A stretch of 64,000 nt of DNA from Escherichia coli. GTDB taxonomy: Bacteria; Pseudomonadota; Gammaproteobacteria; Enterobacterales; Enterobacteriaceae. Where the stretch lies: NCBI RefSeq assembly GCF_044324785.1, contig NZ_CP172127.1. The stretch is one strand, 5' to 3'. The notes under the pieces are model-generated. The model was given only the letters and a program-made list of their open reading frames with translations, had not been told where the DNA came from and ran no database searches. Numbering within the stretch: position 1 is the first letter of the stretch; every line of letters starts with the position of its first letter. The position numbers and the translations under genes were made by a program. Below are positions 1 through 63,985 of the stretch, one piece after another.

Positions 1-199
1 GTGTAAATGGGAGTTTAAAATAGCGAGATGGCTCTTTCACATAAGCAGAGATATTTTCTTTCGGGATAGCGGGTAATACTCCGACTGAGGAAGGCTTATG
101 AATTACTGTATCTGTAGCCGATGCTGTATTTGCCTGGTAAAAACATAGTAACCCCAAGCCAATTATTGCAGCACTTAATCTCAAAAATTTTCTTTCCAT
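1..199 (-). CDS. Partial CDS (N-terminus only; runs off window start): secreted protein with signal peptide, immediately downstream of the BcsA-like gene
   Basis: Reverse strand translates from ATG at 199 as MERKFLRLSAAIIGLGLLCFYQANTASATDTV..., a hydrophobic core followed by an ASA-type cleavage motif; an in-frame ATG also lies at 220. Frame stays open to position 1. Not in the ORF track because it is truncated by the window edge. Confidence 0.4.
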   Translation of the reverse strand, partial: MERKFLRLSAAIIGLGLLCFYQANTASATDTVIHKPSSVGVLPAIPKENISAYVKEPSRYFKLPFT

Positions 200-258
200 T
201 TTAAAAAATTCAACAACCATAATAAATACAAATAATATATTTAATTAGCAATCAGAAA

Positions 259-2379
259 TTAGAACTGACTTTTAGAACTGCCTTTCAGTGTCCGGAGAAT
301 ATAAAAAACCATATTGCAATAACCTTTCAGAGAGATAAAACATATTTCAATAAAACTCTTTAAAATATTGTCTCGTTTAATTTTATCATTCCACTCTTGC
401 CATAGTGAATCACGAGAAAACGTTGCTCTGACATAATTAACATTTTGTTCATGACTCATTGGCATAATCTTCAGACCAATTTTATTATTGTAGGCATGAA
501 CTATTTCTACCGGTATATCACACTTTCCGTTACTATCATCCAGATAAAGAGACAACCGCTGTGTTTTAACAATATTTTTTACGTCGGAGATATTATCAAG
601 GATAACGCCTAATCCTCCTTCGGAAAAATCAAGAACAGAACAAGGATAGCTCCGTCCATCTTCCAGTTGTATAACGCCCTTGAAAGAAACATCAATACGG
701 GGAGAAAAACGCACCTGCTTTTGTTCAATAGAAACAGCCAAAGTTGCGCCAATAATAATTGTATTATAAAACAGCCAAATCAAACAAAAAAAATTCAGGA
801 TGGCGATATGCCCTTGCAAACTATAAACATTAACAATACCTATTATCAGTCCAATTACATTTAAAATGGCAAAAATAAGATAGGGGTAGGAAATTCGCCA
901 GTCAACAAACTTATTTTTTATCAGCCCTCCTTTGGCCGTAACGTTGAAACGCCCTTTTGCTGGTGCAAGTAAAGCTACAAGAGTTGGTAGCGTAATATAC
1001 CAAGCCAGAACCATTTCATAAATCTCATTCCAGAATGAATGTCTGTATTTACCCTGTACTCTTGAATTAGTTAAAATAATAACAAATAAATAAGGTAAAA
1101 CATAAGACATAATATCTGCAACCGATGCTTCGATCAGGTTGACCGAAAAGAAAATAGGACATAACGGTGCGAACAAGAAAATCAGTCGTGGCACACCTGA
1201 TAAAAAATGCATCATGCTGCTGAGATAGCAAAGGCGCTGTGATAATGTCAGCCCCTTGCCCAATAATGGATTGTCAATACGCAAGATTTGAATCATGCCT
1301 CGAGCCCATCGAATCCGTTGTCCAATATGAGCAGACAATGTTTCTGTGGCTAGCCCGGCAGCCAGAGGATAGCGAAGATATGCAGAGCTATAACCTGCAC
1401 GATGCAAGCGTAACGACGTATGCGCATCTTCAGTTACTGTTTCGACTGCAATGCCTCCAACCTCATCCAGAGCAGATCTACGGATGATTGCACATGAACC
1501 ACAAAAAAATGAAGCATTCCATGTATCCGTACCATTCTGGATTAACCCATAAAAAAGGTGTCCTTCATTTGGCTTTTGCCGAAACTGCCCCAAATTTCGC
1601 TCAAAAGGATCGGGGGAAAAAAAATGATGTGGTGTTTGCAACATCGATAATTTTTTATCTGCAATAAACCAGCCCATCGTTTTCTTTAAAAAAGATACCG
1701 AGGGTATATGATCGCAATCGAAAATAGCAACAAATTCGCCATTAGCTATTTTAAGCGCATTATTTATATTTCCGGCCTTAGCATGTTCATGTGTTTCTCT
1801 TGCGACATAGTAAATTCCTGACTCGTTCGCAAATTTCCTGAACTCATCCCTGGCGCCATCATCAAGGATCCAGATATGTAATTTATCCTTTGGCCAGTCT
1901 AAAGCCAACGCACCATAAACTGTATTCTTCACGACTGTAAAAGGTTCGTTATATGTGGGTATTAATATATCTACGATGGGCCATTCTTCTTTATTCTCTG
2001 GTAAAGGTATACTTTCTCTGTTCAGCGGGAAGCAAACCTGAAAGTAACCAAGTAATAAAACAAACCAAGCATACGTTTCAGCAGTTAATAACGTGACTGA
2101 AAATAAGCAGTCTGGAAATTCATTCAGGATGACTGAAGAAGAGTACCGCCACCATAGATATCGGGATGAGATGAGTATTCCAACACCCATTAATATCAGG
2201 GTAATCATCCTTCCCTTGAACAAATTAAGGAAAATGACAGCGATGCAAATAATAATTGAAAATAATATTTGTTGATAAAATCCAAGTGGCTGCTCAACAA
2301 TTGATAAAAAGACAAAACATAGCAATATAGCAACAACCAAAAGGATTTTGTTTAATATTTCTTTATTTTTTAAGATCAT
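259..2379 (-). CDS. Processive family-2 glycosyltransferase, cellulose-synthase (BcsA)-like, with C-terminal PilZ c-di-GMP-binding domain
   Basis: 706 aa with multiple TM segments. Catalytic motifs visible in the translation: IPTYNE, DDG, FDCDH, QTPHHF, FFCGSCAIIRRSAL, TED, QRIRWARG (QxxRW). C-terminal PilZ signature RFSPR...DFSEGG. Gene is visibly AT-rich. Confidence 0.8.
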   Translation of the reverse strand: MILKNKEILNKILLVVAILLCFVFLSIVEQPLGFYQQILFSIIICIAVIFLNLFKGRMITLILMGVGILISSRYLWWRYSSSVILNEFPDCLFSVTLLTAETYAWFVLLLGYFQVCFPLNRESIPLPENKEEWPIVDILIPTYNEPFTVVKNTVYGALALDWPKDKLHIWILDDGARDEFRKFANESGIYYVARETHEHAKAGNINNALKIANGEFVAIFDCDHIPSVSFLKKTMGWFIADKKLSMLQTPHHFFSPDPFERNLGQFRQKPNEGHLFYGLIQNGTDTWNASFFCGSCAIIRRSALDEVGGIAVETVTEDAHTSLRLHRAGYSSAYLRYPLAAGLATETLSAHIGQRIRWARGMIQILRIDNPLLGKGLTLSQRLCYLSSMMHFLSGVPRLIFLFAPLCPIFFSVNLIEASVADIMSYVLPYLFVIILTNSRVQGKYRHSFWNEIYEMVLAWYITLPTLVALLAPAKGRFNVTAKGGLIKNKFVDWRISYPYLIFAILNVIGLIIGIVNVYSLQGHIAILNFFCLIWLFYNTIIIGATLAVSIEQKQVRFSPRIDVSFKGVIQLEDGRSYPCSVLDFSEGGLGVILDNISDVKNIVKTQRLSLYLDDSNGKCDIPVEIVHAYNNKIGLKIMPMSHEQNVNYVRATFSRDSLWQEWNDKIKRDNILKSFIEICFISLKGYCNMVFYILRTLKGSSKSQF

Positions 2380-2463
2380 TATACTTAGCGATTCATTAAC
2401 AATACAGCTTGAATAGTGTGATTTTTATAAACATTGATGACCAATGCCATGCAAATTTAAATA

Positions 2464-3795
2464 TCAACACCACGTTATCTGTGCTCTGCCATTTTGCTTA
2501 CTTTTGTATAACCGTTCATCTGCCAGCAATTTCAACCGTTCAATGTTATTCATGCACTCATCTGTACTGGCAACTCCTATGCTGCAACTACAATTTAACC
2601 CACCGATTGCGAAATGAACAACTCTGTGCAAAATTCTTGATAGTTTATTTTTATCTTTCTCATAATAAATAATAGCAAACTCATCACCGCCAAACCGGTA
2701 TATTTCCCCTTCACGACGGGGTAACTCATCTTTAATAAGGTTAACAAGTTTGATGAGTACTTCATCACCAAACAGATGGCCAAACTTATCATTAATGGTT
2801 TTAAATTTATCCACATCAAATAGACACAGGTAGCCAAAATTCTTGCTCAGCATCTTGATTTCCTTATCAAAACTCCGACGACCAGAAGCCCGAGTTAATG
2901 CATCACAAGTGCCAAAGTCATATATCTCTCGAATTGCATTAATCTCTTCCGTATTAAAGAATAGATTTTCTCCACATAAATCATATTGATGATTCGATAA
3001 TATAGATTCTTTTTCCAATCTACCCTTATTTATAATATTTCGTAGTAATTTAATATAATAAACATACAGTATAACTGCAGATATTGCCGATGCAAAAACG
3101 AATAGCATACATATATAGAGATATTTACTTTTTTTATAGGCAACAATAAACATCATTTCTGGAAGGTAAGAATACGACAGAGTGATAGCTGACATCTCAA
3201 ATACAGCATCATTTATCAAAAAATCATCACCTGTGATTTTCTTTTCATTATCATTAATATCATAAAATGAGATATAGATATCTTCTCGTTCCCCTGACTG
3301 ATTTCTAATCAAAGATAAATAACGTTCAGGATCTACCACTGATATCAAAATTGTTCGTTTGGCAATGGGATGAGCATAATAAACATAGTACTTATCTTTT
3401 AAACCAATAACACCTCTCTCAAATTCGTTCATTACTCGAATAGAGGAAACTATGTCGCCACAAAAATCATCCCCTTTCGTTGTAACTTTGATACATTTAC
3501 CATCGCTAATAATATAAGGACCGAGATCATACAAATATCCAGGATTTTCATAGCCAGCAAAGCTATTGCGTATTTTTTTTACCAATTCTTCTGGGGCAAT
3601 ATCTAGTTCATAAAATATATCATTAGATACTGAGCGGCGATACTCAGAAACATTAGCTATTGCAAGCCCACTATCTACAATAGATACCTTCACCGAATTA
3701 ATGCGGCCCTTAACATAAATGGTGTATAAATAACAAGTTACTACAGCGACGAACAAAAAACAGATTACTGCCGCCTTTTTCTTATATTTGAACAT
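2464..3795 (-). CDS. Membrane-anchored diguanylate cyclase (GGDEF domain) with predicted periplasmic sensor region
   Basis: 443 aa; N-terminal TM, ~190-aa loop, second TM, then a GGDEF domain with an intact RFGGDEF motif. No obvious RxxD I-site immediately upstream of the motif. AT-rich; 4-bp gap to the upstream EAL gene. Confidence 0.8.
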   Translation of the reverse strand: MFKYKKKAAVICFLFVAVVTCYLYTIYVKGRINSVKVSIVDSGLAIANVSEYRRSVSNDIFYELDIAPEELVKKIRNSFAGYENPGYLYDLGPYIISDGKCIKVTTKGDDFCGDIVSSIRVMNEFERGVIGLKDKYYVYYAHPIAKRTILISVVDPERYLSLIRNQSGEREDIYISFYDINDNEKKITGDDFLINDAVFEMSAITLSYSYLPEMMFIVAYKKSKYLYICMLFVFASAISAVILYVYYIKLLRNIINKGRLEKESILSNHQYDLCGENLFFNTEEINAIREIYDFGTCDALTRASGRRSFDKEIKMLSKNFGYLCLFDVDKFKTINDKFGHLFGDEVLIKLVNLIKDELPRREGEIYRFGGDEFAIIYYEKDKNKLSRILHRVVHFAIGGLNCSCSIGVASTDECMNNIERLKLLADERLYKSKQNGRAQITWC

Positions 3796-3799
3796 TGCT

Positions 3800-6148
3800 T
3801 TATTTTCTTTTTTTCGGTTTGCTGTCTATATGCCATTCTGAAAACGGTAGCGGTTTCTGGTATAAGTATCCCTGAACATGAGAGAATCCTAATTTTTGCA
3901 ATTCTCTGGCCTGACTTTCAGTTTCAACACCTTCAGCTATTACCGGCATATTTTCTTCACGAGCAAGGCTGGATATAAAGTACACAATTTTGTTAGTTTC
4001 GTTGAAAATACCAGAGGTAAACTCTGAATCAATTTTAATACTATCAGGTCTTACTTTATAAAGTTTTTTCAGGTCAGCTAATCCACTACCGAAATCATCA
4101 AGAGAAATCTTGATACCGTTTTCTTTTAAAATGTTTATATTATTGTAAAAGCTATCATTTATATCTTTTACTGCTGACTCGGTGATCTCCAGACAGATTT
4201 GTTCAGCATTTACATCAAATGCATTAATTAAAGTAAGAACACGAGTGTGGAAGTCAATTTCATTTAATTGCCATGGAGAAACATTGATATGCAGGAGAAA
4301 ATCGTTAGCAACCTCATATTCACGGCTAAAGGCACCAAATTCGCTAATAGCCGTTTCGAGAATAAAATCACCCAGTTCTTTAATTAATCCTATTTCTTCA
4401 GCAACAGGTACAAAAATTGATGGCGGTATTGCCCCATTTTCGACGGATAACCAGCGGCATAACGCCTCAGCACCGACAACCCTATTATTATCCATATCAA
4501 CAATCGGTTGATATACTAAATAAAGTTCACTACTCAAAATCGCTTTTTTTATATTTCCTGCCACCCAGACCTTTTGATCAAGTTCATGAACTTTGATATC
4601 ATCATAAAACATAAATTCAGATTCTTTATTTTCCCGCATAGCTGTTAATGCCAGTTTCAACTTCCCTTCATAAATCGAAACATTTTCCCCTGAAAAAGTT
4701 TCACAAATGGCAATCTTATGAATATAAATATTTCTTATGCAAAATATATGTTCAGGGAAGTTTAAAACAGATAATCTTTCGATGAACTCTTCGCAGTGCG
4801 TGTGGCACAGCAACAAGTATGTTTCAGTTGAGAATTTTACGATATCACAATATTTTGAATATTTTTGTGAAATCTTCGATTTTATATCATTAACAATTTC
4901 ATAAAATTTCTGACTTCCATATATCGCCTCAACAAACTCTAATCCATAGATGCAAAGCATACCAACTGCCAAATAGGTTTTATTATTAGTTTCAATAACA
5001 GCCTTATTAATATAGAAACAACTTCCTTGTTCATAGGACACAAGATTAAGTAAACGGTCCATACGCTCCTTGTATTTATCACTGATATTATTAATGATTT
5101 TTTTGAGTTCAACAATTTCGCTACTATCATTTTGCACAATATCAATTGTGTCATTGCGATATACTGAGTTAGCTAATTTTTTCAGATGTTCTATTAGTTT
5201 ACTGGATTCTCGTTTAATTTTTTTTGTTATATTTTCAACGATATACCATAATAAACAGAAACAAACCAAGCCACATAAAAACATCAATGTAAAATATTTA
5301 TTGATGTTTGCATCTTCTGCTTTTTGATAGTAAAAGTAATGGAATCTGACATCAGGAAGCCTGGGGAGTGAGATAATATTGTCTGTATAGTTTCCACTAT
5401 TATTACTTATGTTATAACTTCCCGATGACTCACGGACAATAAGATGTAACATTGATTTTTCATTACCTACCATTATCCTTTTATTTTGTTCCATGAATAG
5501 AATATCAGCATCACTACCTAGTTTATTTAAAAAATTACTGAAATATTTTTCATCAAGATCCAGATGCATTAACTTCAGAGCAAATGAATCTTTTTCTTCT
5601 TCGGATGGCCGTAGTGAAAACGAAAAACATTTTTTTCCGGCAATACCATAACAATTATACCATGGTGACCATTTTGAATAAGTCCCTGCCGGTAATTTAT
5701 TCCAGGGGCGTGATTCCGGGTTAAAGTAGTTATCGCTAATATTACCATCGTCCCCAATAAAAGGTTTGCCGGCTTCTGATTTCCCCAGGAATTTTACCTC
5801 ACCATCCTCAGTTCGAATAAAGCTAAGATAGTTTCCATTATTGAGCATTATCCCTACTAAATTAACAGCGTCTATTTTTTTCATGCGATGAAGGACTGCT
5901 CGCTTTATTTCACCTTCATCATTTAACAGATAAATTGCATCTTTTAATGCATCAGCCTCTTTTTCAACTTTAGAAAAAAAATTATTCAAATTGTTATTGA
6001 TGAGTATAAGGTTAATCCGTGAAGAGTTTTCTGCTATTTTTTTATGGAAGTCAATTGCGGTAATAAATGAAAAGACAATATAGACAGTAACAGCTAATAT
6101 AACCGCAGTGTTAAATCTTGAGTTTAATTTTTCGGTAATGCTATACAT
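3800..6148 (-). CDS. Membrane sensor c-di-GMP phosphodiesterase (EAL domain) with large periplasmic region
   Basis: 782 aa; two TM segments flanking a ~260-aa loop. C-terminal EAL domain with conserved YQPIVD, GAEALCRW, EITES, LDDFGSG, IKIDSEF, AEGVETE and QGYLYQKP motifs. First gene of an apparent three- or four-gene minus-strand operon. Confidence 0.8.
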   Translation of the reverse strand: MYSITEKLNSRFNTAVILAVTVYIVFSFITAIDFHKKIAENSSRINLILINNNLNNFFSKVEKEADALKDAIYLLNDEGEIKRAVLHRMKKIDAVNLVGIMLNNGNYLSFIRTEDGEVKFLGKSEAGKPFIGDDGNISDNYFNPESRPWNKLPAGTYSKWSPWYNCYGIAGKKCFSFSLRPSEEEKDSFALKLMHLDLDEKYFSNFLNKLGSDADILFMEQNKRIMVGNEKSMLHLIVRESSGSYNISNNSGNYTDNIISLPRLPDVRFHYFYYQKAEDANINKYFTLMFLCGLVCFCLLWYIVENITKKIKRESSKLIEHLKKLANSVYRNDTIDIVQNDSSEIVELKKIINNISDKYKERMDRLLNLVSYEQGSCFYINKAVIETNNKTYLAVGMLCIYGLEFVEAIYGSQKFYEIVNDIKSKISQKYSKYCDIVKFSTETYLLLCHTHCEEFIERLSVLNFPEHIFCIRNIYIHKIAICETFSGENVSIYEGKLKLALTAMRENKESEFMFYDDIKVHELDQKVWVAGNIKKAILSSELYLVYQPIVDMDNNRVVGAEALCRWLSVENGAIPPSIFVPVAEEIGLIKELGDFILETAISEFGAFSREYEVANDFLLHINVSPWQLNEIDFHTRVLTLINAFDVNAEQICLEITESAVKDINDSFYNNINILKENGIKISLDDFGSGLADLKKLYKVRPDSIKIDSEFTSGIFNETNKIVYFISSLAREENMPVIAEGVETESQARELQKLGFSHVQGYLYQKPLPFSEWHIDSKPKKRK

Positions 6149-7247
6149 ACTGGTGTTCTGACTAAAATGTTATCAATAGCTTTAATATAAGATCGTATAA
6201 AGTTCTGTATATTAGCCGATGTTACCCTCCTCTTTATGACTTTCTTAATTTCATTATCCCCATATAACAAATATGTCATGATGAGAAGATTAATTTTTTC
6301 TTAATTTCCACAAGTGATTATCATGCTTCTTATTTTAACCAGAACAATATTGTTATATGTAACACTCATCTTTGTATCTTTCACCCACGCTACCGCCTTT
6401 CGTTAATCATTCAACGAAATAATTTAGATATGAAAAAATTACCCTGTAACAACACAACTAGCACATCCTGCCGAGTTGTGACATCTACTCTATAATTATC
6501 CAAAAGAGGTATTAGTATCTATTGTCAGTAATCCATTCTGTTTATTTATCTTATTTAAGACATGTGTAATACGACTCTCTTAGCCCAAATATATTAATCA
6601 GTAACTTTAAAGTAAGATTTAGTCAGAAAGTGATCGTGAAAATTTCACTGCCCAGGCTGTAATTTGTCCATCAACCTAACAGATAAATATTTTCAGGAAC
6701 ACACGTTCGATAAAACAATAGATGCAACATTAGAGCACTATTTTATTTTTAAAACAAAAGACTGTGAACTACACCAGGCATGAGAAGATTCTGTCGTGAG
6801 ATGATTTTTTCCAGATTAAAACACTATAAAATATAACTTTTACAGAATATTACGCCAGTAAATCAATATGCCATCTGCATATTCAAACAATAACTGCAAT
6901 CATTCTCAGCAAATTTAACCATAATTAGCAACGTGCAAATTCATTGATGCAGATCAAAAATCCGAGTTTACATTACCAATCTTTGTTGAAAATTTAGCCG
7001 TAAAAATCATGTTATTACTATACGCAAGAGTTTACTCCAGAGCCCAAAATAATAACTTGCAAAATAACCAATAATTAAAACTATCACCATATCTAAAAAT
7101 AAAGGTCTCCGATAACTAAAATTCGTATTATCACGGTAGCGTTGATATTCTTCCATCTCTTAAGAAAAACTTAACTTTTACCCTATCAGGCCTGATCTAA
7201 TTTTAAACTATTTGATATCATAGCCCCGGCGAACCGGGGCATGATGA

Positions 7248-8678
7248 CTATTTTGTATTCGCTTTACGTGCAAGCAGCGGGAATATCAGCCCCAGTCCAA
7301 CGAGGACAAATGGCGTAGTTATGTTCAGTGCCAATTGGAATGTCCACTCTGCAGTGAAGGCTTCCATTTTAGGGAAAATTCCTGTCAGGCAGGCAAAAGC
7401 GGTAAAGGCAAAACACCAAATTCCGACGGTCATTGCCAGCGGCTTATTACGAATAAAGACATATTCCGGCTTATATTTCTGCGCCAGGCGAACAACTGCA
7501 ATAAATGCAACAAATACCCATAAATAACGCAGCGGCATCACTACCGAGTTAAGATTCAACAGCCATTTATAGAGATTGTTCATATCACCAATGCCGAGAG
7601 TCGGCAGCATTATCAGGATCGCCACCAGCACCAGGGTCAGAAAATAGCCATTAACGGGCGTACCAGAAGCGTTGGTACGACATAAACTGGCTGGAATATA
7701 TTTGCTGTCAGCATCGCCTAATAACACTTTAAGCGGCGCATCAATCGAGAATACCAGCGCAGCTACTTGTCCCAGGGTATTCGCAATGGCATAAATCACC
7801 ATTAAAGTATTACCCATGTTGTAATACTCGCCCAGCTTCTGAAAGGCGTAATACTGACCGTTAGTCATTAAGTCATCCGGGATATTACGCGAGTCAAACA
7901 TCATCCCCATCGCCAGTGAGCCCAGAATGGCACAAACCGCAACCATCACCGCCAGACATAACATCCCTTTTGGAAATTCTTTTCCTGGGTTGCGCGTTTG
8001 ATTAACGTAAGGAGAAATCTTCTCTGCTCCGCCAACCGCGAAAACCAGCATTGAAATAGTGGTAATGTAGGTAAAGTCGATATGAGGAATGAACGTTTCC
8101 CAGGTAATGTTTGTGGTCGCAATATGCACTTCAGTAATCGCAGGCGCGGTTACCGCCATCGCCACATACAGGAGCGACATAACAAACATCGCAATCCCTG
8201 CCACAGAACCGACGATTTTCAGCGATTTCATACCGCGTGAAGCAACCCACATAAAGAAGATAAACAGCACCAGCGTTAACCCCTGTAACGCTACGACTGA
8301 ATATTCTTTGATTAGCGAACCGTCGCCTTTCATCGCCCAACCGAGCGCAATCAGTATTGCCTGGGGTTTTTGTGCCAGATAGGGAATATGCACTACCCAG
8401 TAGGTCCACGCGGCGAGGTAAGCCAGTCCGGGTCCCATCGTGTGTTTAATCCAGGTACTGACCCCGCCCTTCCCATCTTTGAAGGTCGAGCCTAACTGAC
8501 CAACAATTAGCGCATAAGGTGTGAAATAGAGCGCAAAGATAAACACCCACGAAAAAACAACCACCAGCCCCTGGTTGGCGTAGTTATTAACAACGTTGCC
8601 AAAACCCCAGACAGTGATAAAAGACATCAGCGCAATGTTGTACCATCGCAGCTGTTTTTCCTGAACATTCCCAGCCAT
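7248..8678 (-). CDS. ycaM: Putative amino-acid/polyamine transporter YcaM
   Basis: The ORF-track frame extends to 8870, but the internal Met at 8678 (MAGNVQEKQLRWYNIALMSF...) gives 476 aa, matching the YcaM length as I recall it. Multi-TM permease. Confidence 0.8.
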   Translation of the reverse strand: MAGNVQEKQLRWYNIALMSFITVWGFGNVVNNYANQGLVVVFSWVFIFALYFTPYALIVGQLGSTFKDGKGGVSTWIKHTMGPGLAYLAAWTYWVVHIPYLAQKPQAILIALGWAMKGDGSLIKEYSVVALQGLTLVLFIFFMWVASRGMKSLKIVGSVAGIAMFVMSLLYVAMAVTAPAITEVHIATTNITWETFIPHIDFTYITTISMLVFAVGGAEKISPYVNQTRNPGKEFPKGMLCLAVMVAVCAILGSLAMGMMFDSRNIPDDLMTNGQYYAFQKLGEYYNMGNTLMVIYAIANTLGQVAALVFSIDAPLKVLLGDADSKYIPASLCRTNASGTPVNGYFLTLVLVAILIMLPTLGIGDMNNLYKWLLNLNSVVMPLRYLWVFVAFIAVVRLAQKYKPEYVFIRNKPLAMTVGIWCFAFTAFACLTGIFPKMEAFTAEWTFQLALNITTPFVLVGLGLIFPLLARKANTK

Positions 8679-8887
8679 AGACAAATCCTTCGCCAAAATT
8701 AAAGGGGCATCTGTAAAACGAGGGATTATGCGCGGCAAATAAGAAGTGCGGAAATAGCGAAATGCAAAATTATAACCTGCTGCACATTTTATTTTGAAAC
8801 GAATAAAATTTGGAAAAAAGCAAGTCAGAGAGAAGAAACAGAAAAGCAGAGTGTGAAACAGTAAGTTCACACTCTGCGTTAATTCAT

Positions 8888-10036
8888 TTACACGTGAGCA
8901 ACGGGTTTCGGCGTATGACCGGCGTTGCGAAGCAGCATCAGCAAATAGATAAACGATACGCTGGCGATCATGATAAACAATAAATTATCGGAGAAATTCT
9001 GCATTAGCATGGCAGTAAATGACGGGCCAAGCAGACTTCCCACAGTATAGCTCAACAGTAAGGCCTGGTTCATCGCCACCAGTTGATGATGTTCAACTTT
9101 CTCGCAAGCCCATGCCATCGCCACCGGATATAGCGTAAAGCCAGCGGCACCGAGGATGAATAACGCTGGGGCCATCGCCGCCTGGCTAAGCATCGCGATA
9201 CTGCCGAGAATGACGACAAAGACCTGAACACGCAACACCAGCAGTCGACCAAACTTATCCGCCAGACGTCCGATCGGCCATTGTCCGAGGATACCCGCAC
9301 TGACCAGTACCGCCATCCAGAAACCAATGCTGGCATTGCTCACCCCTTTGTGATTGAGGTACAGCGGCATCAGGCCATATAGAGATCCCAGCACGATTCC
9401 TGAGATAATGCAGCCATTCACGCCAAGCCGCGCCTGACGGAGTTTTAGCATTGACGTAATTGACGTCGAATCATGGTTTTCAGCCTGCTGATTCAGCACA
9501 CGCGTAAACAACAGCGGTAAGATCCCTGCCAACGTCAAACCTGTAACCCACGGCAATACGCTCATCAGCTCGGTTGAGACTTTGCTGACCAGTAACTGGC
9601 CTAAAAACGTTCCCACGTAATAAACCATCATGTATGCGGCAAGCAAACGCCCACGGTTACGTGACGTCCCACTGCACATCAGCGCGCTCTCAACGACTAC
9701 CCAAATCATGGCACAGCCGACGCCCGCGACAAAACGCCACGCCAACCAGCTCCAGAAACCAATCATCAGGCCAAGGCCGACACAGCCAGCGGCAAAAATG
9801 AAGGAGGCCAGATAATAGCTGCGGTTAAAGCCAATGCGCTTAATGACATACCCTGTCAGCAATGTACCGACCAGGTTGCCGGTAAAATAGGATGAGCTGA
9901 CAACGCCTACCTGCCATGTGGACATGTGTTCCTGGGCGAGCCAAAGCGGCACGAGTGTATTTAACACTGCGATCGCCAGAGTCAACAAAAGCAGGCCAGA
10001 CAGCAAAAGCATGACAGGCCGGGTATACGTGGACAT
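8888..10036 (-). CDS. ycaD: MFS transporter YcaD
   Basis: 382-aa 12-TM protein; sequence and position between ycaM and ycaC match K-12 synteny. Confidence 0.85.
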
Positions 10037-10350
10037 GAATTAAAACCGTGAGGAAGTTCAAATTTCATGCGCATCATGCCACCGCCAAAAACATTGTCAA
10101 TGGGTGAAAATACGCGCATATCGCAGCGGAGGTATTATCGATTTATATTACTCATTCATAACGCTAATGCTGGAGAGACGATTAATCTCATCTGATTGTT
10201 TTTATTGATCTAACACAAATTTCATACGCTTCGTTCAGTCGAAAAATTTCATGGTCACAGCAAACTCATATTTCCCGTCTATGCTTTCAGAGCAATGCAT
10301 CGCGTCTGACCGATTTCAGACGTACCACTGACTCTCGAAAGGAGAAGAGG

Positions 10351-10977
10351 ATGACCAAACCGTATGTTCGTCTTGATAAAAATGATGCTGCCGTTTTGCT
10401 TGTTGATCACCAGGCTGGTTTACTTTCCCTTGTACGGGATATCGAACCCGATAAGTTTAAAAATAACGTGCTGGCGCTGGGTGACCTGGCTAAGTATTTC
10501 AACTTACCAACTATTCTTACCACCAGTTTTGAAACCGGTCCTAACGGCCCATTAGTTCCAGAACTGAAAGCACAATTCCCCGATGCACCTTACATTGCTC
10601 GCCCGGGCAATATTAACGCCTGGGATAACGAAGATTTTGTAAAAGCAGTCAAAGCGACAGGTAAAAAACAGTTAATTATTGCCGGTGTGGTAACCGAAGT
10701 TTGCGTGGCATTCCCGGCGCTTTCAGCCATTGAAGAAGGGTTTGACGTCTTTGTCGTGACTGACGCGTCAGGGACCTTTAATGAAATTACCCGGCATTCG
10801 GCATGGGATCGCATGTCGCAAGCTGGTGCGCAATTGATGACATGGTTCGGCGTGGCGTGCGAGCTGCATCGCGACTGGCGTAATGATATTGAAGGACTGG
10901 CGACGTTGTTCTCTAACCATATTCCTGATTATCGTAATTTGATGACCAGTTATGACACGTTAACGAAGCAGAAATAA
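10351..10977 (+). CDS. ycaC: Isochorismatase-family hydrolase YcaC
   Basis: 208 aa; RBS-like GGAGAAGAGG upstream; conserved position next to dmsC. Confidence 0.85.
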   Translation: MTKPYVRLDKNDAAVLLVDHQAGLLSLVRDIEPDKFKNNVLALGDLAKYFNLPTILTTSFETGPNGPLVPELKAQFPDAPYIARPGNINAWDNEDFVKAVKATGKKQLIIAGVVTEVCVAFPALSAIEEGFDVFVVTDASGTFNEITRHSAWDRMSQAGAQLMTWFGVACELHRDWRNDIEGLATLFSNHIPDYRNLMTSYDTLTKQK

Positions 10978-10982
10978 AAGAG

Positions 10983-11004
10983 AACCGGGGCCGAAACCCC
11001 GGTT
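10983..11004. terminator. Hairpin between convergent ycaC and dmsC (candidate bidirectional terminator)
   Basis: aaccgggg-ccgaaa-ccccggtt perfect 8-bp stem directly after the ycaC stop. Confidence 0.5.
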
Positions 11005-11011
11005 GTTATGA

Positions 11012-11875
11012 TTAGCTTGCGACGGCCATCCCCACGGTCATATGCAAACCATAGAATACGCCACGACCGATTAATTCCCCTGCCAGAAGCAGAATGAATG
11101 ATACGGATAGTAGCGGAACCGCAGGCTGATAACCTTTTAGCTGTGGTGCAATCCACAAACACAGGGCAACAGCCAAAAGCACGATCCGCCAGGACATCAG
11201 CGCACCATAGTCCGGCACCAGCGCTGCGGCCTGCTGCACAGAGCTATGAATAGTCGCCAGCTCTGCGCCCTGCATCACTGACACCACGCCACTCACTACC
11301 AGGGCCAGTACAGAAATGGCTGGCAGCAGACGCATCGCCCAGCCATCGACGCCAGCCAGACTCAGCAACAGGTAACCCAGTAACGGGCCGCCCATAAACA
11401 TCGTCAGGAAGAAGCCCATCGGCGTCCAGATGCTGTACCAGGTCGGAACGGTATCAATGCTGTTATACACACGCACCATCATCCAGACAAAGATGACGCC
11501 AAGAACCATCGTCACTATCAGCCACAGCGTACGCAATGCCGGTGACAGCTTTTTCAGCATTGCCAGCAACCAGCCGATGCCACCAACAGCAAAAAAGATC
11601 GAACCGCTGGCGATTTCGTTACTGAGTGCTGAAGCCCCTACCCGGTTGAGCGAGTTAAAGGCGCGCATCGGTGAACCAAGATGAAGCATAGAGGCGATAA
11701 AGCCAATGCCCATCAGCACCCATAAACCAAACATGCAGGCAATAACACGCTGCTGGGCTTCTGCTCGCAGGTCGCCTTTGAGCAGCGCCAAAGCCAGAAC
11801 GATAAAACTACCCGCTACACATTGCCCGAAGACCGTGAAGATCATCAGCGGCCATTCATGCCATCCACTTCCCAT
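11012..11875 (-). CDS. dmsC: DMSO reductase membrane anchor subunit DmsC
   Basis: Multi-TM protein. Start placed at the internal Met (MGSGWHEWPLMIFTVF...), which overlaps the dmsB stop as in K-12; the ORF-track frame extends to 11938. Confidence 0.8.
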   Translation of the reverse strand: MGSGWHEWPLMIFTVFGQCVAGSFIVLALALLKGDLRAEAQQRVIACMFGLWVLMGIGFIASMLHLGSPMRAFNSLNRVGASALSNEIASGSIFFAVGGIGWLLAMLKKLSPALRTLWLIVTMVLGVIFVWMMVRVYNSIDTVPTWYSIWTPMGFFLTMFMGGPLLGYLLLSLAGVDGWAMRLLPAISVLALVVSGVVSVMQGAELATIHSSVQQAAALVPDYGALMSWRIVLLAVALCLWIAPQLKGYQPAVPLLSVSFILLLAGELIGRGVFYGLHMTVGMAVAS

Positions 11876-11876
11876 C

Positions 11877-12494
11877 TCACACCTCCTTCGGGTTTGCCAG
11901 ATAGCCAGTGGTATCCCCGGTCGGGCGGCTGTTGGCATTGGGTTTGATCACAATATTCGGTTTGGTAAAGTGAGCTCGCGGCAACGGCGCAACGGCCGCC
12001 AGATCGCCATGTTTTTTACGCAGCTCGTCGATAGGGCCGAAATCCAGCGCCCGCAGCGGGCAAGATTCAACACAGATCGGCTTTTTCCCCTCCGCAACAC
12101 GGTCATAACAACCATCGCATTTGGTCATATGGCCTTTCGTTTCGTTATATTGCGGTGCGCCATACGGGCAAGCCATATGGCAGTAGCGGCAGCCAATGCA
12201 CACATCTTCATCGACCACAACAAAACCATCTTCACGTTTATGCATCGCACCGCTCGGGCAGACTTTAGTACAAGCCGGATCTTCGCAGTGGTTACATGAA
12301 ATCGACAGATAGTAGGCAAACACGTTCTGATGCCAGACACCGTTATCTTCCTGCCAGTCACCGCCAGCATATTCATAAATGCGGCGGAAGCTGACTTCCG
12401 GCGTCAGATCTTTATAGTCTTTACAGGCCAGCTCGCAGGTTTTGCAACCGGTGCAACGGCTGGAATCAATAAAAAATCCATACTGGGTTGTCAT
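11877..12494 (-). CDS. dmsB: DMSO reductase iron-sulfur subunit DmsB
   Basis: 205 aa with four Cys-rich ferredoxin-type motifs (CxxCxxCxxxCP). Confidence 0.9.
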   Translation of the reverse strand: MTTQYGFFIDSSRCTGCKTCELACKDYKDLTPEVSFRRIYEYAGGDWQEDNGVWHQNVFAYYLSISCNHCEDPACTKVCPSGAMHKREDGFVVVDEDVCIGCRYCHMACPYGAPQYNETKGHMTKCDGCYDRVAEGKKPICVESCPLRALDFGPIDELRKKHGDLAAVAPLPRAHFTKPNIVIKPNANSRPTGDTTGYLANPKEV

Positions 12495-12504
12495 CGGTTA
12501 CTCC

Positions 12505-14949
12505 TTACACCTTTTCAACCTGAACAAGGTTTGTATGTGACGGATTCCCCTTAGCGAGAGGAGACGGACGTTGAGTGGTCAGTACGTTGATACAACCGCC
12601 CTTATCGACACGTTTTGCATCCGGGTCATACCAGGCACCTTCACCCAGTGCGACCACACCCGGCATCATTCGTGGCGTCACTTTCGCCTCAATATGAACC
12701 TCACCACGGTCGTTAAAGATCCTGACCTTATCGCCGTTGTTGATACCGCGTTTTTGTGCATCAAGCGGGTTGATCCACATTTCCTGACGGCAAGCTGCTT
12801 TCAGCACATCAACGTTGCCGTAAGTTGAGTGAACGCGAGATTTATAGTGGAAGCCAGTAAGCTGCAGCGGATATTGTTTGTTCAGCGGATCCTGATAACT
12901 TTCAAAGCCCGGCGTGTAGATCGGCAGTGGATCGATCACGTCGCCTTCTGGCAATTCCCAGGTAGCGGCAATGTCAGCCAGCGCCTGCGAATAAATCTCA
13001 ATTTTACCCGATGGCGTGGTCAGTGGATTTGCCTGCGGATCTTCACGGAAGGCTTTATAAGCAACGTGATGCCCTTGTGGGTCGCGCTTTTTAAAGATCC
13101 CCTGCTTGCGGAACTCTTCAAACGTTGGCAGTTCAGGAATCGCTTCCCGCGACTGGGCATACAGATGCCGCATCCACTCTTCCTGGGTACGGCCTTCAGT
13201 AAACTGTTGCTCAACGCCAAGACGTTTTGCCAGTTCGCTGGTCATTTCATAGATGGTCTTACATTCAAAGCGCGGTTTAATCACCTGATCGTTGAAAATC
13301 ACGTAAGACATATTCCCGCAGGATGCATCCAGTGCAAAGTCCATCTGTTCGGAAGCGGTGCAGTCAGGTAGCAGGATGTCAGCATATTTCGCCGATGAGG
13401 TCATGTGGCAGTCGATAACCACAATCAGCTCGCACTTCTTATCATCCTGAAGGATTTCATGGGTACGGTTGATTTCAGAATGCTGGTTAATCAGGCAGTT
13501 ACCGGCATAGTTCCAGATCATTTTGATCGGCACATCCAGCTTATCTTTCCCGCGCACACCATCACGCAGCGCCGTCATTTCCGGGCCACGTTCAATGGCA
13601 TCGGTCCACATAAACATAGAAATGCTGGTCTGGATCGGGTTTTCGAGGGTCGGCATACGGACAAACGGTAAGCTGTATGAACCTTCACGCGCGCCGCTGT
13701 TCCCTCCATTAATACCAACGTTACCGGTCAGAATCGCCAGCATCGAGATAGCACGGGTTGCGATTTCACCGTTAGCGTGACGCTGCGGGCCCCATCCCTG
13801 GCTGATAAACGCCGGTTTGGTACTACCGATTTCACGAGCCAATTTGATGATTTTGTCTGCCGGAACACCGGTGATTTGCGAGGCCCATTCCGGCGTTTTA
13901 GCCACGCCATCTGGCCCTTCACCCAGAATATAAGCTTTATAGTGACCATTTTTCGGCGCACTGGCTGGCAGTGTTTTCTCGTCGTAGCCAACGCAATATT
14001 TATCGAGGAATGCCTGATCCACCAGGTTTTCGGTGATCATGACATACGCCAGACCGTTAACCAGTGCGGCATCTGTTCCCGGACGAATAGGGATCCACTC
14101 ATCTTCACGCCCGGCACCGGTGTCGGTATAGCGCGGATCGATGATGATCATGCGAGCATTAGATTTCTGGCGCGCCTGTTCAAGATAGTAAGTCACCCCA
14201 CCGCCACTCATTCGCGTTTCGCCAGGGTTATTACCAAACAGCACTACCAGCTTACTGTTTTCGATATCCGACGGGCTGTTACCATCTGCCCAGCCGCCGT
14301 AGGTATAGTTCAAACCTTCCGCAATTTGCGCGGAAGAGTAGTCACCGTAATGGTTCAGATAACCGCCGCAGCAGTTCATCAGGCGCGCGACCAGGGTATT
14401 TCCCGGCGGCCAGGAGCGGGTCATGGTACCGCCCAGCGTACCGGTGCCATAGTTCAGATAGATAGACTCGTTGCCGTACTCTTTGATAAGGCGCTGCATA
14501 TTGGTCGCGATGATGTCGTAGGCTTCTTCCCAGCTAATGCGCTCGAATTTGCCTTCACCGCGCGCCCCGACTCGTTTCATCGGATATTTCAGGCGGTCCG
14601 GATTGTAGACACGGCGACGCATGGAACGACCACGCAGACAGGCGCGCACCTGGTGCAGGCCGTCATAGTTGTCATCGCCAGTATTATCCGTTTCAACATA
14701 TTTGATTTCACCGTCCACGACGTGCATACGTAGCGGGCAGCGACTACCACAGTTAACTGTACAGGCGCTCCAGATAACCTTTTCGTCTGATTTTGTTGGA
14801 ATGGCGCTATCGACAGCGTGCGCAATCCGACTAAAAGGTAATGTTAATGCGCTGCTGGCCATTGCCAGGCCGCCGATCGCTGTCGTTTTTACCAAACCAC
14901 GGCGACTCACCTCAGCAGCCAATACCGCATCAGGGATTTTCGTTTTCAT
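12505..14949 (-). CDS. dmsA: DMSO reductase catalytic subunit DmsA (molybdopterin oxidoreductase)
   Basis: 814 aa; twin-arginine signal (SRRGLVKTTAIGGLA); molybdopterin oxidoreductase fold. Confidence 0.9.
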   Translation of the reverse strand: MKTKIPDAVLAAEVSRRGLVKTTAIGGLAMASSALTLPFSRIAHAVDSAIPTKSDEKVIWSACTVNCGSRCPLRMHVVDGEIKYVETDNTGDDNYDGLHQVRACLRGRSMRRRVYNPDRLKYPMKRVGARGEGKFERISWEEAYDIIATNMQRLIKEYGNESIYLNYGTGTLGGTMTRSWPPGNTLVARLMNCCGGYLNHYGDYSSAQIAEGLNYTYGGWADGNSPSDIENSKLVVLFGNNPGETRMSGGGVTYYLEQARQKSNARMIIIDPRYTDTGAGREDEWIPIRPGTDAALVNGLAYVMITENLVDQAFLDKYCVGYDEKTLPASAPKNGHYKAYILGEGPDGVAKTPEWASQITGVPADKIIKLAREIGSTKPAFISQGWGPQRHANGEIATRAISMLAILTGNVGINGGNSGAREGSYSLPFVRMPTLENPIQTSISMFMWTDAIERGPEMTALRDGVRGKDKLDVPIKMIWNYAGNCLINQHSEINRTHEILQDDKKCELIVVIDCHMTSSAKYADILLPDCTASEQMDFALDASCGNMSYVIFNDQVIKPRFECKTIYEMTSELAKRLGVEQQFTEGRTQEEWMRHLYAQSREAIPELPTFEEFRKQGIFKKRDPQGHHVAYKAFREDPQANPLTTPSGKIEIYSQALADIAATWELPEGDVIDPLPIYTPGFESYQDPLNKQYPLQLTGFHYKSRVHSTYGNVDVLKAACRQEMWINPLDAQKRGINNGDKVRIFNDRGEVHIEAKVTPRMMPGVVALGEGAWYDPDAKRVDKGGCINVLTTQRPSPLAKGNPSHTNLVQVEKV

Positions 14950-15141
14950 AATGGCTCACTCAAGCTTGCTCACGATTGATTCCAGTAACAAACCGTATTG
15001 TGTAATTATTTCTATAGCAGGTCGCTATATAGGCTTGTATACATCGAATAATTTGAAAATCAAAGAGATAGGTAGATTTTCACTCGAAAGTAGTATTACG
15101 TGTAAGTGAGGAGTAATTATTGTTCGGTATCAAAGGGAGAC

Positions 15142-15167
15142 AAAAAAAGCGCCCGCAGGCGCTTTTT
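15142..15167 (-). terminator. Rho-independent terminator downstream of serS
   Basis: caaaaaaagcgcccgcaggcgcttttt: GC-rich stem with an A-run on one side and a T-run on the other; sits between the serS stop and the dmsA upstream region. Confidence 0.6.
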
Positions 15168-15187
15168 AGATTCAGAAAAATTGGGTA

Positions 15188-16501
<1,314 letters not shown>

Positions 16502-40621: not shown

Positions 40622-41494
40622 TCAGAAGAAAATCCAGTTCCATACAGCGCGGGCAACAGAGACCACCGTGTCACGGACGACACGCAGAACCGTACGAGCC
40701 ACAGAGGCAACACAGACGCTCTCCGCCGTGTCAAATATCCGGTCCACCGCACCGGTAAACTGTTCACGGGCCTGCCCCCGGACAGATTCCGTGCACAGCT
40801 CGTCCTGCAGGCGGGTCATCAGGGGACTGGCGGCATGGTCGGGAAGTGCTGTCATGAGCGCACTGACCAGCGTATCCAGTTCCCAGCCGGTGCGGGCCGA
40901 TACGGCCACAACCGGATGTACGGGCCGGAACAGACGGAATACCGCCTCCGTTTTTTCGCGAATGTTCTGTGCCTGTGCGGGAGAAGGCTGAATACCGGCC
41001 ATATCCCATTCATGGCAGGGCTCCGTTTTATCGGCCTGCGTCACCACAAACAGCACCTGCTGATGTCCCCGGTGCAGGATGTGTCGCCAGAAATACTCAT
41101 CCACAGACAGGGCACGGTCATCGGCTTTAATCAGCCACAGTACCAGGTCAAGTTCAGGCAGAATGTCACGGTACAGGGCTTCATACTCTGCATCCCTGTC
41201 CCGGCTCTCGCCCACCCCGGGCAGGTCAGTGATAACCATGCTGTGACCGTGGCCACTCAGACGGAAGCGCCGCACTTCCCGGGTGCCGGCGTGAACATCA
41301 CTGACCGGGGTGACCTCCCCCTGAAACAGTGCATTACAGAGTGAGGATTTACCGGCCCCGCTTTTCCCCATAATGCCAATCACGGGTTCGTGACTGGTGA
41401 GTTTACGCAGATGTTCCAGGATGTGACGGGAAAGTGAGTAAGGCAGGGAAGAAAGTGGTTTTTCAATTGCCTCAATGGCATCAGACGGATTCAT
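40622..41494 (-). CDS. YeeP/YkfA-like GTPase (50S ribosome-binding GTPase family)
   Basis: P-loop GIMGKSGAGKSSLCNALF and DLPG G3-like motif; start taken at MNPSDAIEAI... Confidence 0.75.
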   Translation of the reverse strand: MNPSDAIEAIEKPLSSLPYSLSRHILEHLRKLTSHEPVIGIMGKSGAGKSSLCNALFQGEVTPVSDVHAGTREVRRFRLSGHGHSMVITDLPGVGESRDRDAEYEALYRDILPELDLVLWLIKADDRALSVDEYFWRHILHRGHQQVLFVVTQADKTEPCHEWDMAGIQPSPAQAQNIREKTEAVFRLFRPVHPVVAVSARTGWELDTLVSALMTALPDHAASPLMTRLQDELCTESVRGQAREQFTGAVDRIFDTAESVCVASVARTVLRVVRDTVVSVARAVWNWIFF

Positions 41495-41757
41495 ACATGT
41501 ATTCCCGGTGAAAAAAGACAAAACCCCGCGCACCGGAAAGGTGGCGGGGGATTCACGGAGATAATATCTGTCTGAAATTATTTAGAATGCACCTGGTGCA
41601 CTGCAAAGGAAAGGCAATATTCCGTTCCTCCTCCTTGTCGTGAATACCCCAGGTATCTCACAATGTACACCGACTTACTCCGGGGCTGCCTGAACCACAA
41701 GATTGCTGTAGAATTGCCCCCAATGATTCAGGTCCAAACCAGGAAAATGGATTAAAA

Positions 41758-43167
41758 ATGACAAGTATTCAACAACGAGCAGAACTGCACCGCCAGATAT
41801 GGCAAATTGCCAATGATGTCAGAGGTTCTGTTGACGGATGGGATTTTAAGCAATACGTTCTGGGCGCGCTTTTCTACCGTTTTATCAGCGAAAATTTTTC
41901 CAGCTATATTGAAGCCGGTGATGACAGTATCTGTTATGCGAAACTGGATGACAGCGTAATTACTGATGACATTAAAGACGATGCCATCAAAACTAAAGGC
42001 TACTTCATCTACCCAAGTCAGCTTTTCTGCAACGTAGCTGCGAAAGCAAATACCAATGACAGACTGAATGCAGATTTAAACAGTATCTTCGTTGCTATCG
42101 AAAGTTCTGCTTACGGTTACCCTTCAGAAGCTGACATCAAAGGTTTGTTTGCTGATTTCGATACCACCAGTAACCGCCTGGGTAACACCGTTAAGGATAA
42201 AAATGCCCGCCTGGCTGCGGTTCTGAAAGGGGTTGAAGGGTTAAAACTTGGTGACTTCAACGAACATCAGATTGACCTGTTCGGCGATGCCTATGAGTTC
42301 CTGATTTCTAACTATGCGGCGAATGCTGGTAAGTCAGGCGGCGAGTTTTTTACACCGCAGCATGTCTCTAAGCTGATTGCACAACTGGCTATGCACGGGC
42401 AGACCCACGTTAACAAAATCTACGACCCAGCCGCAGGTTCCGGTTCGCTGTTGTTACAGGCGAAAAAGCAGTTTGATGACCATATCATCGAAGAAGGCTT
42501 TTTTGGTCAGGAGATCAACCATACGACCTATAACCTGGCGCGTATGAACATGTTTTTGCACAACATCAACTACGACAAGTTTGATATCAAGCTGGGCAAT
42601 ACGCTGACTGAGCCGCACTTCAGAGATGAAAAACCGTTTGATGCCATCGTTTCTAACCCGCCGTATTCAGTGAAATGGATTGGCAGCGATGACCCGACGC
42701 TGATTAACGATGAGCGTTTTGCCCCGGCTGGCGTCCTGGCCCCCAAATCAAAAGCTGACTTCGCGTTTGTATTACATGCGCTGAACTATCTTTCGGCCAA
42801 AGGTCGCGCCGCGATTGTCTGCTTCCCGGGTATTTTTTACCGTGGCGGCGCAGAGCAGAAAATCCGTCAGTATCTGGTCGATAATAACTATGTCGAAACC
42901 GTGATTTCACTGGCACCGAACCTGTTCTTTGGCACCACCATTGCCGTAAACATTCTGGTGCTGTCTAAACATAAAACGGATACCAAAGTTCAGTTTATTG
43001 ACGCCAGCGAACTGTTCAAAAAAGAGACTAACAACAATATCCTGACCGATGCCCATATCGAACAGATTATGCAGGTATTTGCCAGCAAGGAAGATGTTGC
43101 TCATCTGGCGAAATCTGTTGCGTTTGAGACTGTTGTCGCGAATGACTATAACGGCTTTGTTGAATAA
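41758..43167 (+). pseudogene. hsdM: Type I restriction-modification methyltransferase subunit HsdM (IC/EcoR124-like), 3'-truncated by IS903; no hsdR or hsdS present
   Basis: N-terminus [47 protein letters not shown]; SAM-binding motif [10 protein letters not shown]; catalytic NPPY motif ([11 protein letters not shown]). The last 4 codons plus stop (GFVE*) are encoded by the IS903 terminal repeat starting at 43153. 469 aa versus ~520 expected. Confidence 0.75.
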
Positions 43168-62607: not shown

Positions 62608-62830
62608 AGTTCCCGTCTTTTATCATTCAGTTACCAACCTGAATATCTGAAACAATGCCAGACATCGGTTACAAACTGGCATTGTTTTTATCATTCAATT
62701 TATAAACTACAATATTACGTATTATTTTTACATTTATGTCATTGCAAATATCAGACAAACAAGCATTATAACTCAATAAGTATATTTTTCGTGATTACAG
62801 ACGACATCTGCAAATCTGTGAGATGTGATT

Positions 62831-63985
62831 TCATCGCTGGTTTTCCATAATCTGAGACATCACATAATCCGCCCATGCCTGCATCATCGGTATACGCTGA
62901 TCCAGCAGATCAGTCCGGTGATATGCCGCCTCAACCTTATTTTTCAGCGTATGGGCAAGCGCCCTTTCCGCCAAATCCCGCGAATATCCCTGTTCGCTAC
63001 ACCAGTCCCTGAATGTTGAACGAAAACCATGTGCTGTAGCCACTCGTCCGGGTATATCACTGATGGCCTTCTTTTTACGCAGAAAACTCGTCAACACCAT
63101 ATCTGAAAGGATCTGCTGCTTTCTGGGAGAAGGAAACACCAGTTCGTCATGCAGACCACGTATATTTTCCAGAACGTGAATGGCCTGTCGGGATAAAGGA
63201 ACACGATGCTGTATCCTGGCTTTCATTCTTTCTGCGGGTATCGTCCATATCCGCTTATGAAAATCAATTTCAGCCCAGCGCATTCCCCTTGCTTCGCCCG
63301 AGCGGGTTGCTGTCAGTATCACCATTAATAACAGTGCCCGGGTAACATTATAAGGTTCATCTGTATACACACTGGTCGCCACAAAAAGCGGTAACTGCCT
63401 CCAGGGCATTGCCGGCTGGTGTTCATCACGTCCTCTTGATTGCTGTGGAAGCAAATGATCAACCACATCAACAGGATTCGCCACACAAAAACCATGCGCC
63501 CAGCCCCACTGCATAACAACATGAATGCGCTGTTTAACCCGGCTTGCCGTTTCTGACAAGGTTAACCAGACTGGACGCAGTGTTTCTGCCACGTCCGCAG
63601 CCGTAATCGAATCCAGCGTTTTTGCTCCCAGTTGAGGAAACGCGTAATTCTCAAGCGTCGATAACCACTGCCTTACATGCTTTGGATTTTCCCATCCAGG
63701 AGACAGTTCTGCATGTACACGCCTGGCTGCATCGGCAAATGTTGGGATAACAACTTTTTCAGCTTCAGCCTTTTTAATCTCCAGAGGATCATCACCTGCA
63801 GCAAGTTGCTCTCGCATTATCCGGGCAGTACGTGCAGCTTCAGCAATACTGACCTCAGGATAAGTTCCCAATCCAGCATTACGCCTTTTTTGTGTCACCG
63901 GACTTACATAACGAAAAACCCATTTACCCCTCCCCTTTACTGAAGAAGGATGAAGAGTCAGTCCTGTAATTCCCCCATGGGGCAA
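62831..63985 (-). CDS. int: Tyrosine recombinase / P4-type integrase (N-terminus may extend beyond the window)
   Basis: N-terminal arm-binding region (GGITGLTLHPSSVKGRGKWVFRY), AYPEVS-like motif (GTYPEVS) and C-terminal catalytic region (HGFRSTFRDW ... AYHRTDLLDQR). The ORF-track start is a TTG and the frame is still open at position 64000. Confidence 0.85.
   Translation of the reverse strand: MPHGGITGLTLHPSSVKGRGKWVFRYVSPVTQKRRNAGLGTYPEVSIAEAARTARIMREQLAAGDDPLEIKKAEAEKVVIPTFADAARRVHAELSPGWENPKHVRQWLSTLENYAFPQLGAKTLDSITAADVAETLRPVWLTLSETASRVKQRIHVVMQWGWAHGFCVANPVDVVDHLLPQQSRGRDEHQPAMPWRQLPLFVATSVYTDEPYNVTRALLLMVILTATRSGEARGMRWAEIDFHKRIWTIPAERMKARIQHRVPLSRQAIHVLENIRGLHDELVFPSPRKQQILSDMVLTSFLRKKKAISDIPGRVATAHGFRSTFRDWCSEQGYSRDLAERALAHTLKNKVEAAYHRTDLLDQRIPMMQAWADYVMSQIMENQR

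Follow-up and report, generated by a model that had tools for sequence, protein, structure and literature searches.

The stretch of DNA which we have analysed (the window, 64,000 nucleotides from Escherichia coli) starts inside a gene. On the minus strand an ATG at positions 199–197, with a product starting MERKFLRL, opens a reading frame which runs off the window. The reverse-strand translation of positions 1–220, MVVEFFKMERKFLRLSAAIIGLGLLCFYQANTASATDTVIHKPSSVGVLPAIPKENISAYVKEPSRYFKLPFT, is free of stops and reads MVVEFFKMERKFLRLSAAIIGLGLLCFYQANTASATDTV...KLPFT. The preceding gene on the same strand codes for a BcsA-like protein and ends in a TAA at 261–259: the distance from this stop to the ATG at 199 is 59 nt, and it would be 38 nt for a second ATG at 220. 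The original prediction had placed a truncated reverse-strand frame at the window start, beginning 40–60 bp past the synthase stop, and this is borne out by the sequence. It had also attributed the absence of the frame from the list of open reading frames to its incompleteness; the listing does omit frames which run off an end. When the 258-nt stretch was shuffled (mononucleotide shuffling), an ATG-started frame of at least 66 codons reaching the edge appeared in 82 of 20,000 shuffles. The features of the region are collected in Table 1.

Table 1. Features at the start of the window, with their positions and the evidence for each
Feature	Position	Strand	Evidence
5' end of bcsB (66 codons), accessory bcs cluster	1..199	-	sequence, N3 continuation, profiles
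Predicted Sec signal peptide, codons 1-28, cleavage A28/T29 (ASA/TD)	116..199	-	sequence inspection
bcsA-bcsB spacer with alternative in-frame ATG at 220-218	200..258	-	
bcsA-like cellulose synthase, 706 aa, GT2 + PilZ	259..2379	-	domain search, alignment
GAPES2-GGDEF diguanylate cyclase, 443 aa (446 in N3)	2464..3795	-	domain search, alignment
CHASE9-EAL phosphodiesterase, 782 aa in N3	3800..6148	-	domain search, alignment
AT-rich non-coding stretch, about 31% GC, 1.1 kb, 5' of the phosphodiesterase gene up to the ycaM stop	6149..7247	.	

The closest complete genome is that of E. coli N3 (NZ_CP031609.1), which is identical to the window over positions 1–3760. In N3 these genes are part of an island of 12.7 kb with five genes on one strand: pdeI-like, dgcI-like, bcsA, bcsB and bcsC. 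The island lies between pflA and ycaM, in place of 1.7 kb which contain ycaN and ycaK in K-12. Homology with K-12 ends exactly at the stop codon of pflA and resumes at the stop codon of ycaM. From the upstream region through bcsB the GC content is 29–46%, while the flanks have about 50%. The N3 annotation shows no integrase, IS element or tRNA gene at the borders of the island. This strain also keeps a complete canonical locus, bcsRQABZC with bcsEFG, at 1192892–1207084. Further along, N3 is annotated with an IS110-family transposase gene which separates aqpZ from lysO, with a frameshift in potH and with a pentapeptide-repeat gene, close to ybjQ, which is split; the regions concerned correspond to window positions ~41140–42170 and ~62800–63740.

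The synthase has the motifs DDG, DCD, TED, QRIRW and FFCGS, together with RFSPR (RxxxR) and DFSEGG (DxSxxG) in its PilZ domain. It lacks the N-terminal extension of about 150 aa of K-12 BcsA: the alignment starts at K-12 residue 150, and 52.9% of the 690 aligned positions are identical, which is about 42% of 872. The other two complete genes code for full-length paralogues of K-12 proteins: the cyclase of DgcI/YliF (42% identity, GGDEF kept) and the phosphodiesterase of PdeI/YliE (39% identity, EAL kept). The order of the pair is the same as that of PdeI and DgcI in K-12. The AT-rich stretch beyond them contains no open reading frame longer than 51 aa and is without Rfam matches; the regulation of the island presumably resides here, and the stretch is possibly a target of silencing. 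In an Rfam scan of the whole island (E up to 0.1) the single hit was a snoRNA at chance level, with 22.8 bits where the gathering score is 60. A promoter scan was uninformative, with 37 promoter-like sites for 34.8 expected. In a terminator scan the only convincing case was a hairpin between pflA and bcsC, and none was found in the bcsA-bcsB spacer.

The visible start of the frame has the anatomy of a classic Sec signal peptide, as the original prediction had proposed. The n-region is MERKFLR, with a net charge of +2. It is followed by an h-region of 13 residues, L8–F20, with a mean Kyte-Doolittle value of 2.4, and by a c-region YQANTASA with Ala at -3 and -1. The ASA motif is retained in all three island variants. 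The cleavage site given in Table 1 is a rule-based prediction derived from these three regions. Two other export routes were considered and rejected. Tat export is ruled out by the sequence, as inspection of the bcsB signal peptide found no twin-arginine motif. A lipoprotein is also ruled out: the end of the h-region has no lipobox [LVI][ASTVI][GAS]C, and C19 is preceded by L-L and is not conserved (it is Trp in MS 21-1). For comparison, the K-12 BcsB of the published structures starts at residue 26, with a chain of 754 aa against a precursor of 779 aa.

What this signal peptide belongs to is apparent in N3, where the frame has 766 codons (N3 locus L001, 11899–14199) and is annotated in RefSeq as bcsB, WP_373889485.1; bcsC follows after 112 nt. 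Our statements on the full-length gene of the window rest on two proxies, N3 and the Logan contig SRR31073010_9 described below. For the profile tests we used the protein of N3; over the 66 shared codons it does not differ from that of the window. The Pfam family BcsB (PF03170) is matched with 699 bits (cut-off 21), residues 63–667 lying on positions 6–606 of a profile of 606. The NCBIfam equivalog NF008325 gives 1168 bits (cut-off 922), aligned over 1–765 of 766. Identity with K-12 BcsB is 64.6%, and residues 36–764 align with the E. coli BcsB chains of PDB entries 6yg8, 7l2z, 9fmt and 9b8v. Near the C-terminus there is one hydrophobic helix at about 733–756, nearly identical to that of K-12. 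The maximum of the Kyte-Doolittle profile in a 19-residue window, 2.65, falls at residues 725–756; the sequence there is HPILLAVLATLSVVLLAWVVW, followed by a basic tail. In all loci examined the gene stands directly 3' of bcsA and 5' of bcsC. The protein is thus a full-length BcsB, in which an export signal at the N-terminus precedes the BcsB fold (residue 63 onwards) and a C-terminal anchor. The name 'cyclic di-GMP-binding protein' given to BcsB is a historical label: in our domain search the PilZ domain is found in BcsA.

The window itself shows only the signal peptide and a variable linker, since the conserved fold begins at residue 63. The 66 visible residues match no NCBIfam model (E up to 1), so that the earlier call of a periplasmic partner, 'BcsB-like or other', was drawn from context alone. 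The N3 continuation supports BcsB by annotation, Pfam and NCBIfam, and the homology search with this protein gives a full-length family match. An early in-frame stop was looked for and does not appear: in N3 the frame has its 766 codons, and at least 567 are open in a contig which is identical to the window. Linkage with the synthase is conserved as well, with bcsA and bcsB adjacent in every locus examined, that of plasmid pS56 included. We therefore consider it very probable that positions 1–199 of the minus strand are the start of bcsB, the partner of the adjacent BcsA-like synthase, in an accessory bcsABC island of low GC content.

The gene may have a different fate in the genome of the window itself. 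N3 and the window are not the same strain sequence: at 3760/3761 the window lacks 9 nt, which removes YFL from a FLYFLF repeat in the first transmembrane helix of the GAPES2-GGDEF cyclase (443 against 446 aa). In the first 16.4 kb compared there are 40 SNPs, all of them at 12709–16178, a cluster which spans roughly from dmsA towards serS. Such a cluster, set in sequence which is otherwise identical, has the look of a recombination tract. When the 443-aa cyclase was searched for exact matches, we found the Logan contig SRR31073010_9 (locus L018), which is 100% identical to window positions 1–13795, including the 9-nt deletion and the SNPs, and extends 1533 nt past window position 1. In this contig bcsB can be read through 567 codons, in which two substitutions distinguish it from N3. 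The last 30–32 nt of the contig (L018 15297–15328) are unrelated to bcsB: we counted 18166 occurrences of this tail, spread over 4471 E. coli genomes, and in NZ_CP025869.1 it is followed, after about 60 nt, by an IS2 transposase gene which interrupts zitB. Since the tail is repeated throughout the genomes and adjoins an IS2 transposase gene, the contig ends at an IS2 end. The gene could then be a bcsB which has become a pseudogene in the window's own genome, by an IS2 insertion after codon 567. A window-identical contig meets the IS2 end at that point and stops there, as short-read assemblies do at repeats. However, a single junction has been seen, on one side of the insertion only; the contig stems from an assembly different from that of the window, and an uninterrupted bcsB is present in N3, 06-00048, MS 21-1 and E. 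marmotae. The chances of a disrupted gene are in our opinion somewhat below even. If the insertion is true, BcsB would lose its C-terminal membrane anchor and the last portion of its periplasmic part, with a probable polar effect on bcsC, and the signal-peptide frame visible in the window would belong to a dead accessory cluster.

Whether intact or interrupted, bcsB has two candidate starts. Translation from the upstream ATG (window 220–218) would give a precursor of 773 aa with a longer n-region (MVVEFFKMERKFLR...). This ATG is in frame and present in all three island variants, the 773-aa form is the one of most database entries in the bcsB protein cluster, and no Shine-Dalgarno-like motif is found upstream of either ATG. 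The current RefSeq annotation uses ATG-199 instead. Besides, the seven extra codons behave much like spacer: between N3 and MS 21-1 they differ at 4 of 18 variable positions, non-synonymously. We favour ATG-199 because the family model NF008325 and K-12 BcsB align from the MERK/MKRK methionine; the longer form appears unlikely, at about one chance in a few. The export prediction is identical for either start.

A third alternative, that the synthase and its partner make another polymer (a mixed-linkage or distinct beta-glucan, for example) with the 'BcsB' homologue in a different role, is suggested by the limited identity of BcsA with its K-12 counterpart (about 53% over the aligned part), but it is very improbable: BcsA is above the NCBIfam equivalog cut-offs for cellulose synthase (1014 against 992, and 843 against 699 for TIGR03030) and has all the signature motifs of the enzyme, BcsB and BcsC pass their own equivalog cut-offs, and BcsC is largely the canonical cellulose porin.

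The working of a BcsA-BcsB pair is known from structures and in-vitro work on the Bcs complexes of Rhodobacter and E. coli, and the steps which we propose here are inferred from that knowledge; our own data concern family membership, architecture, linkage and selection. Sec would export the BcsB precursor, with cleavage after Ala28. The C-terminal helix would tether the mature protein, pack against BcsA and be needed for BcsA activity, while the carbohydrate-binding and flavodoxin-like domains of BcsB would hand the nascent glucan towards BcsC. The neighbouring cyclase and phosphodiesterase would produce and degrade cyclic di-GMP, which may gate BcsA through its PilZ domain. As the island has no bcsEFG, the expected product is unmodified cellulose.

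This second cellulose synthase is horizontally acquired and is found in few Escherichia strains. The island is present in 9 of 5426 complete E. coli genomes, always adjoining ycaM-ycaD. In E. marmotae contigs it adjoins ycaD, without ycaM. The order PDE-DGC-bcsA-bcsB-bcsC is kept in N3, 06-00048, MS 21-1, the E. marmotae contigs and further E. coli contigs. The E. marmotae locus has the same architecture, with a bcsA 87% identical in nucleotides to that of the island. There are at least three island lineages at the same site, represented by the N3, MS 21-1 and E. marmotae loci. The alleles of N3 differ from those of MS 21-1 or E. marmotae with dS of about 0.6–0.8, which appears much deeper than the typical divergence of E. 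coli strains. Between island variants dN/dS is 0.14–0.25 for bcsB and 0.07–0.15 for the neighbouring genes. These ratios indicate purifying selection on all five island genes, which argues for a function where the genes are intact.

In a large protein search the relatives of this BcsB above 68% identity are only from E. coli, E. marmotae, E. ruysiae and Escherichia sp. The next tier, at 61–68%, contains the canonical proteins of Escherichia, Citrobacter, Salmonella and Klebsiella, and no relative was found between 68% and 84%. An origin of the island in a distant genus of low GC content was also considered and is unsupported: the nearest relatives outside the island are the canonical BcsB proteins of Enterobacteriaceae, at 61–68%. 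A search of a plasmid collection gave only a distant relative, on pS56.

The last gene of the island has a different history. In every variant bcsC is a mosaic (N3 locus L001 8679–11786, ~2.2–5.3 kb beyond window position 1). Over its first ~520 nt the identity with canonical bcsC is about 70%; then comes an in-frame gap of 366 nt, which corresponds to K-12 residues 177–298; the 2556 nt at the 3' end are 88–97% identical to the canonical gene, with the stop codon as the exact limit of the similarity. In N3 the 3' part of the island gene shares N3-specific polymorphisms with the canonical copy of the same strain over about 1 kb, with a longest identical run of 338 nt. Near the 3' end it matches instead the island copy of 06-00048. 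Such patchy matching suggests gene conversion between the island and canonical loci. Short-read contigs break inside the island bcsC. Recurrent conversion might keep the porin/TPR part interchangeable while bcsA and bcsB remain diverged by about 30% in nucleotides, and the accessory module may be tied in this way to the canonical system through its outer-membrane component; we offer this only as a tentative and rather doubtful reading.

Several differences separate the island from the canonical system. K-12 BcsB (b3532; 6yg8, 7l2z, 7lby, 9fmt, 9fnn) has the same plan of signal peptide, BcsB fold and C-terminal anchor, but the N-terminal 60 residues of the island protein are unrelated to it in sequence, and this part is shorter by 11–13 residues. 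Between bcsA and bcsB there are 59 nt in the island and 10 nt in K-12. The canonical type II bcs locus of E. coli has bcsRQ upstream, bcsZ between bcsB and bcsC, and a divergent bcsEFG, whereas the island has none of them; in N3 they are found only at the canonical locus.

Accessory clusters of this kind have been described recently. Hosseinpourlamardi et al. (2025, Romling laboratory, 10.1101/2025.05.09.653004) reported BcsA2, BcsA3 and BcsA4 clusters in E. coli, with YliF/YliE homologues, and tested only the type 4 cluster experimentally. In their preprint BcsA3 is a chromosomal bcsABC which adjoins YliF/YliE homologues and is restricted to Escherichia; the supplement lists it in E. marmotae, and its representatives are HDP8224287.1 and, from E. 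marmotae, WP_000576412.1. Our island shares with this type a short BcsA with about 41–42% full-length identity to BcsA1, a chromosomal bcsABC and YliF/YliE-like neighbours. It fits class BcsA3, an assignment made by description only. The prediction of unmodified cellulose is also made in the preprint (10.1101/2025.05.09.653004). The insertion site between pflA and ycaM is found here and is absent from that work. There BcsC clusters with BcsA and recombination is not mentioned, whereas in our island most of bcsC is canonical-like.

A related accessory pair, BcsA2/BcsB2 (WP_074014783.1 / WP_074014782.1), is found on plasmid pA of E. coli S56, also beside GGDEF and EAL genes. The island proteins are 73% (BcsA) and 60% (BcsB) identical to it, but the pA copy is plasmid-borne and surrounded by IS elements. 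In this plasmid (L004 2769–11522) the diverged bcsA and bcsB are accompanied by a full-length K-12-like bcsC (97–99% in nucleotides) and a remnant of bcsZ. Its bcsB and bcsC are separated by a group II intron together with an IS200/IS605 transposase gene.

Both bcsB and the type of cluster are thus already known, from annotation, from the NCBIfam model and from the 2025 preprint: as the gene is annotated and the cluster recently described, the finding is correct but ordinary. The context is of modest value: it fixes the chromosomal site of an accessory cluster and shows that the host retains its canonical bcs locus. A second cellulose system appears here to be reshaped or lost in two ways, by gene conversion of bcsC and by a possible IS2 hit in bcsB. 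Should selection, and not mechanism alone, lie behind the homogenisation of bcsC, both cellulose systems may use, or compete for, the same periplasmic or outer-membrane partners. This context bears on the continued rarity of second cellulose operons in E. coli.
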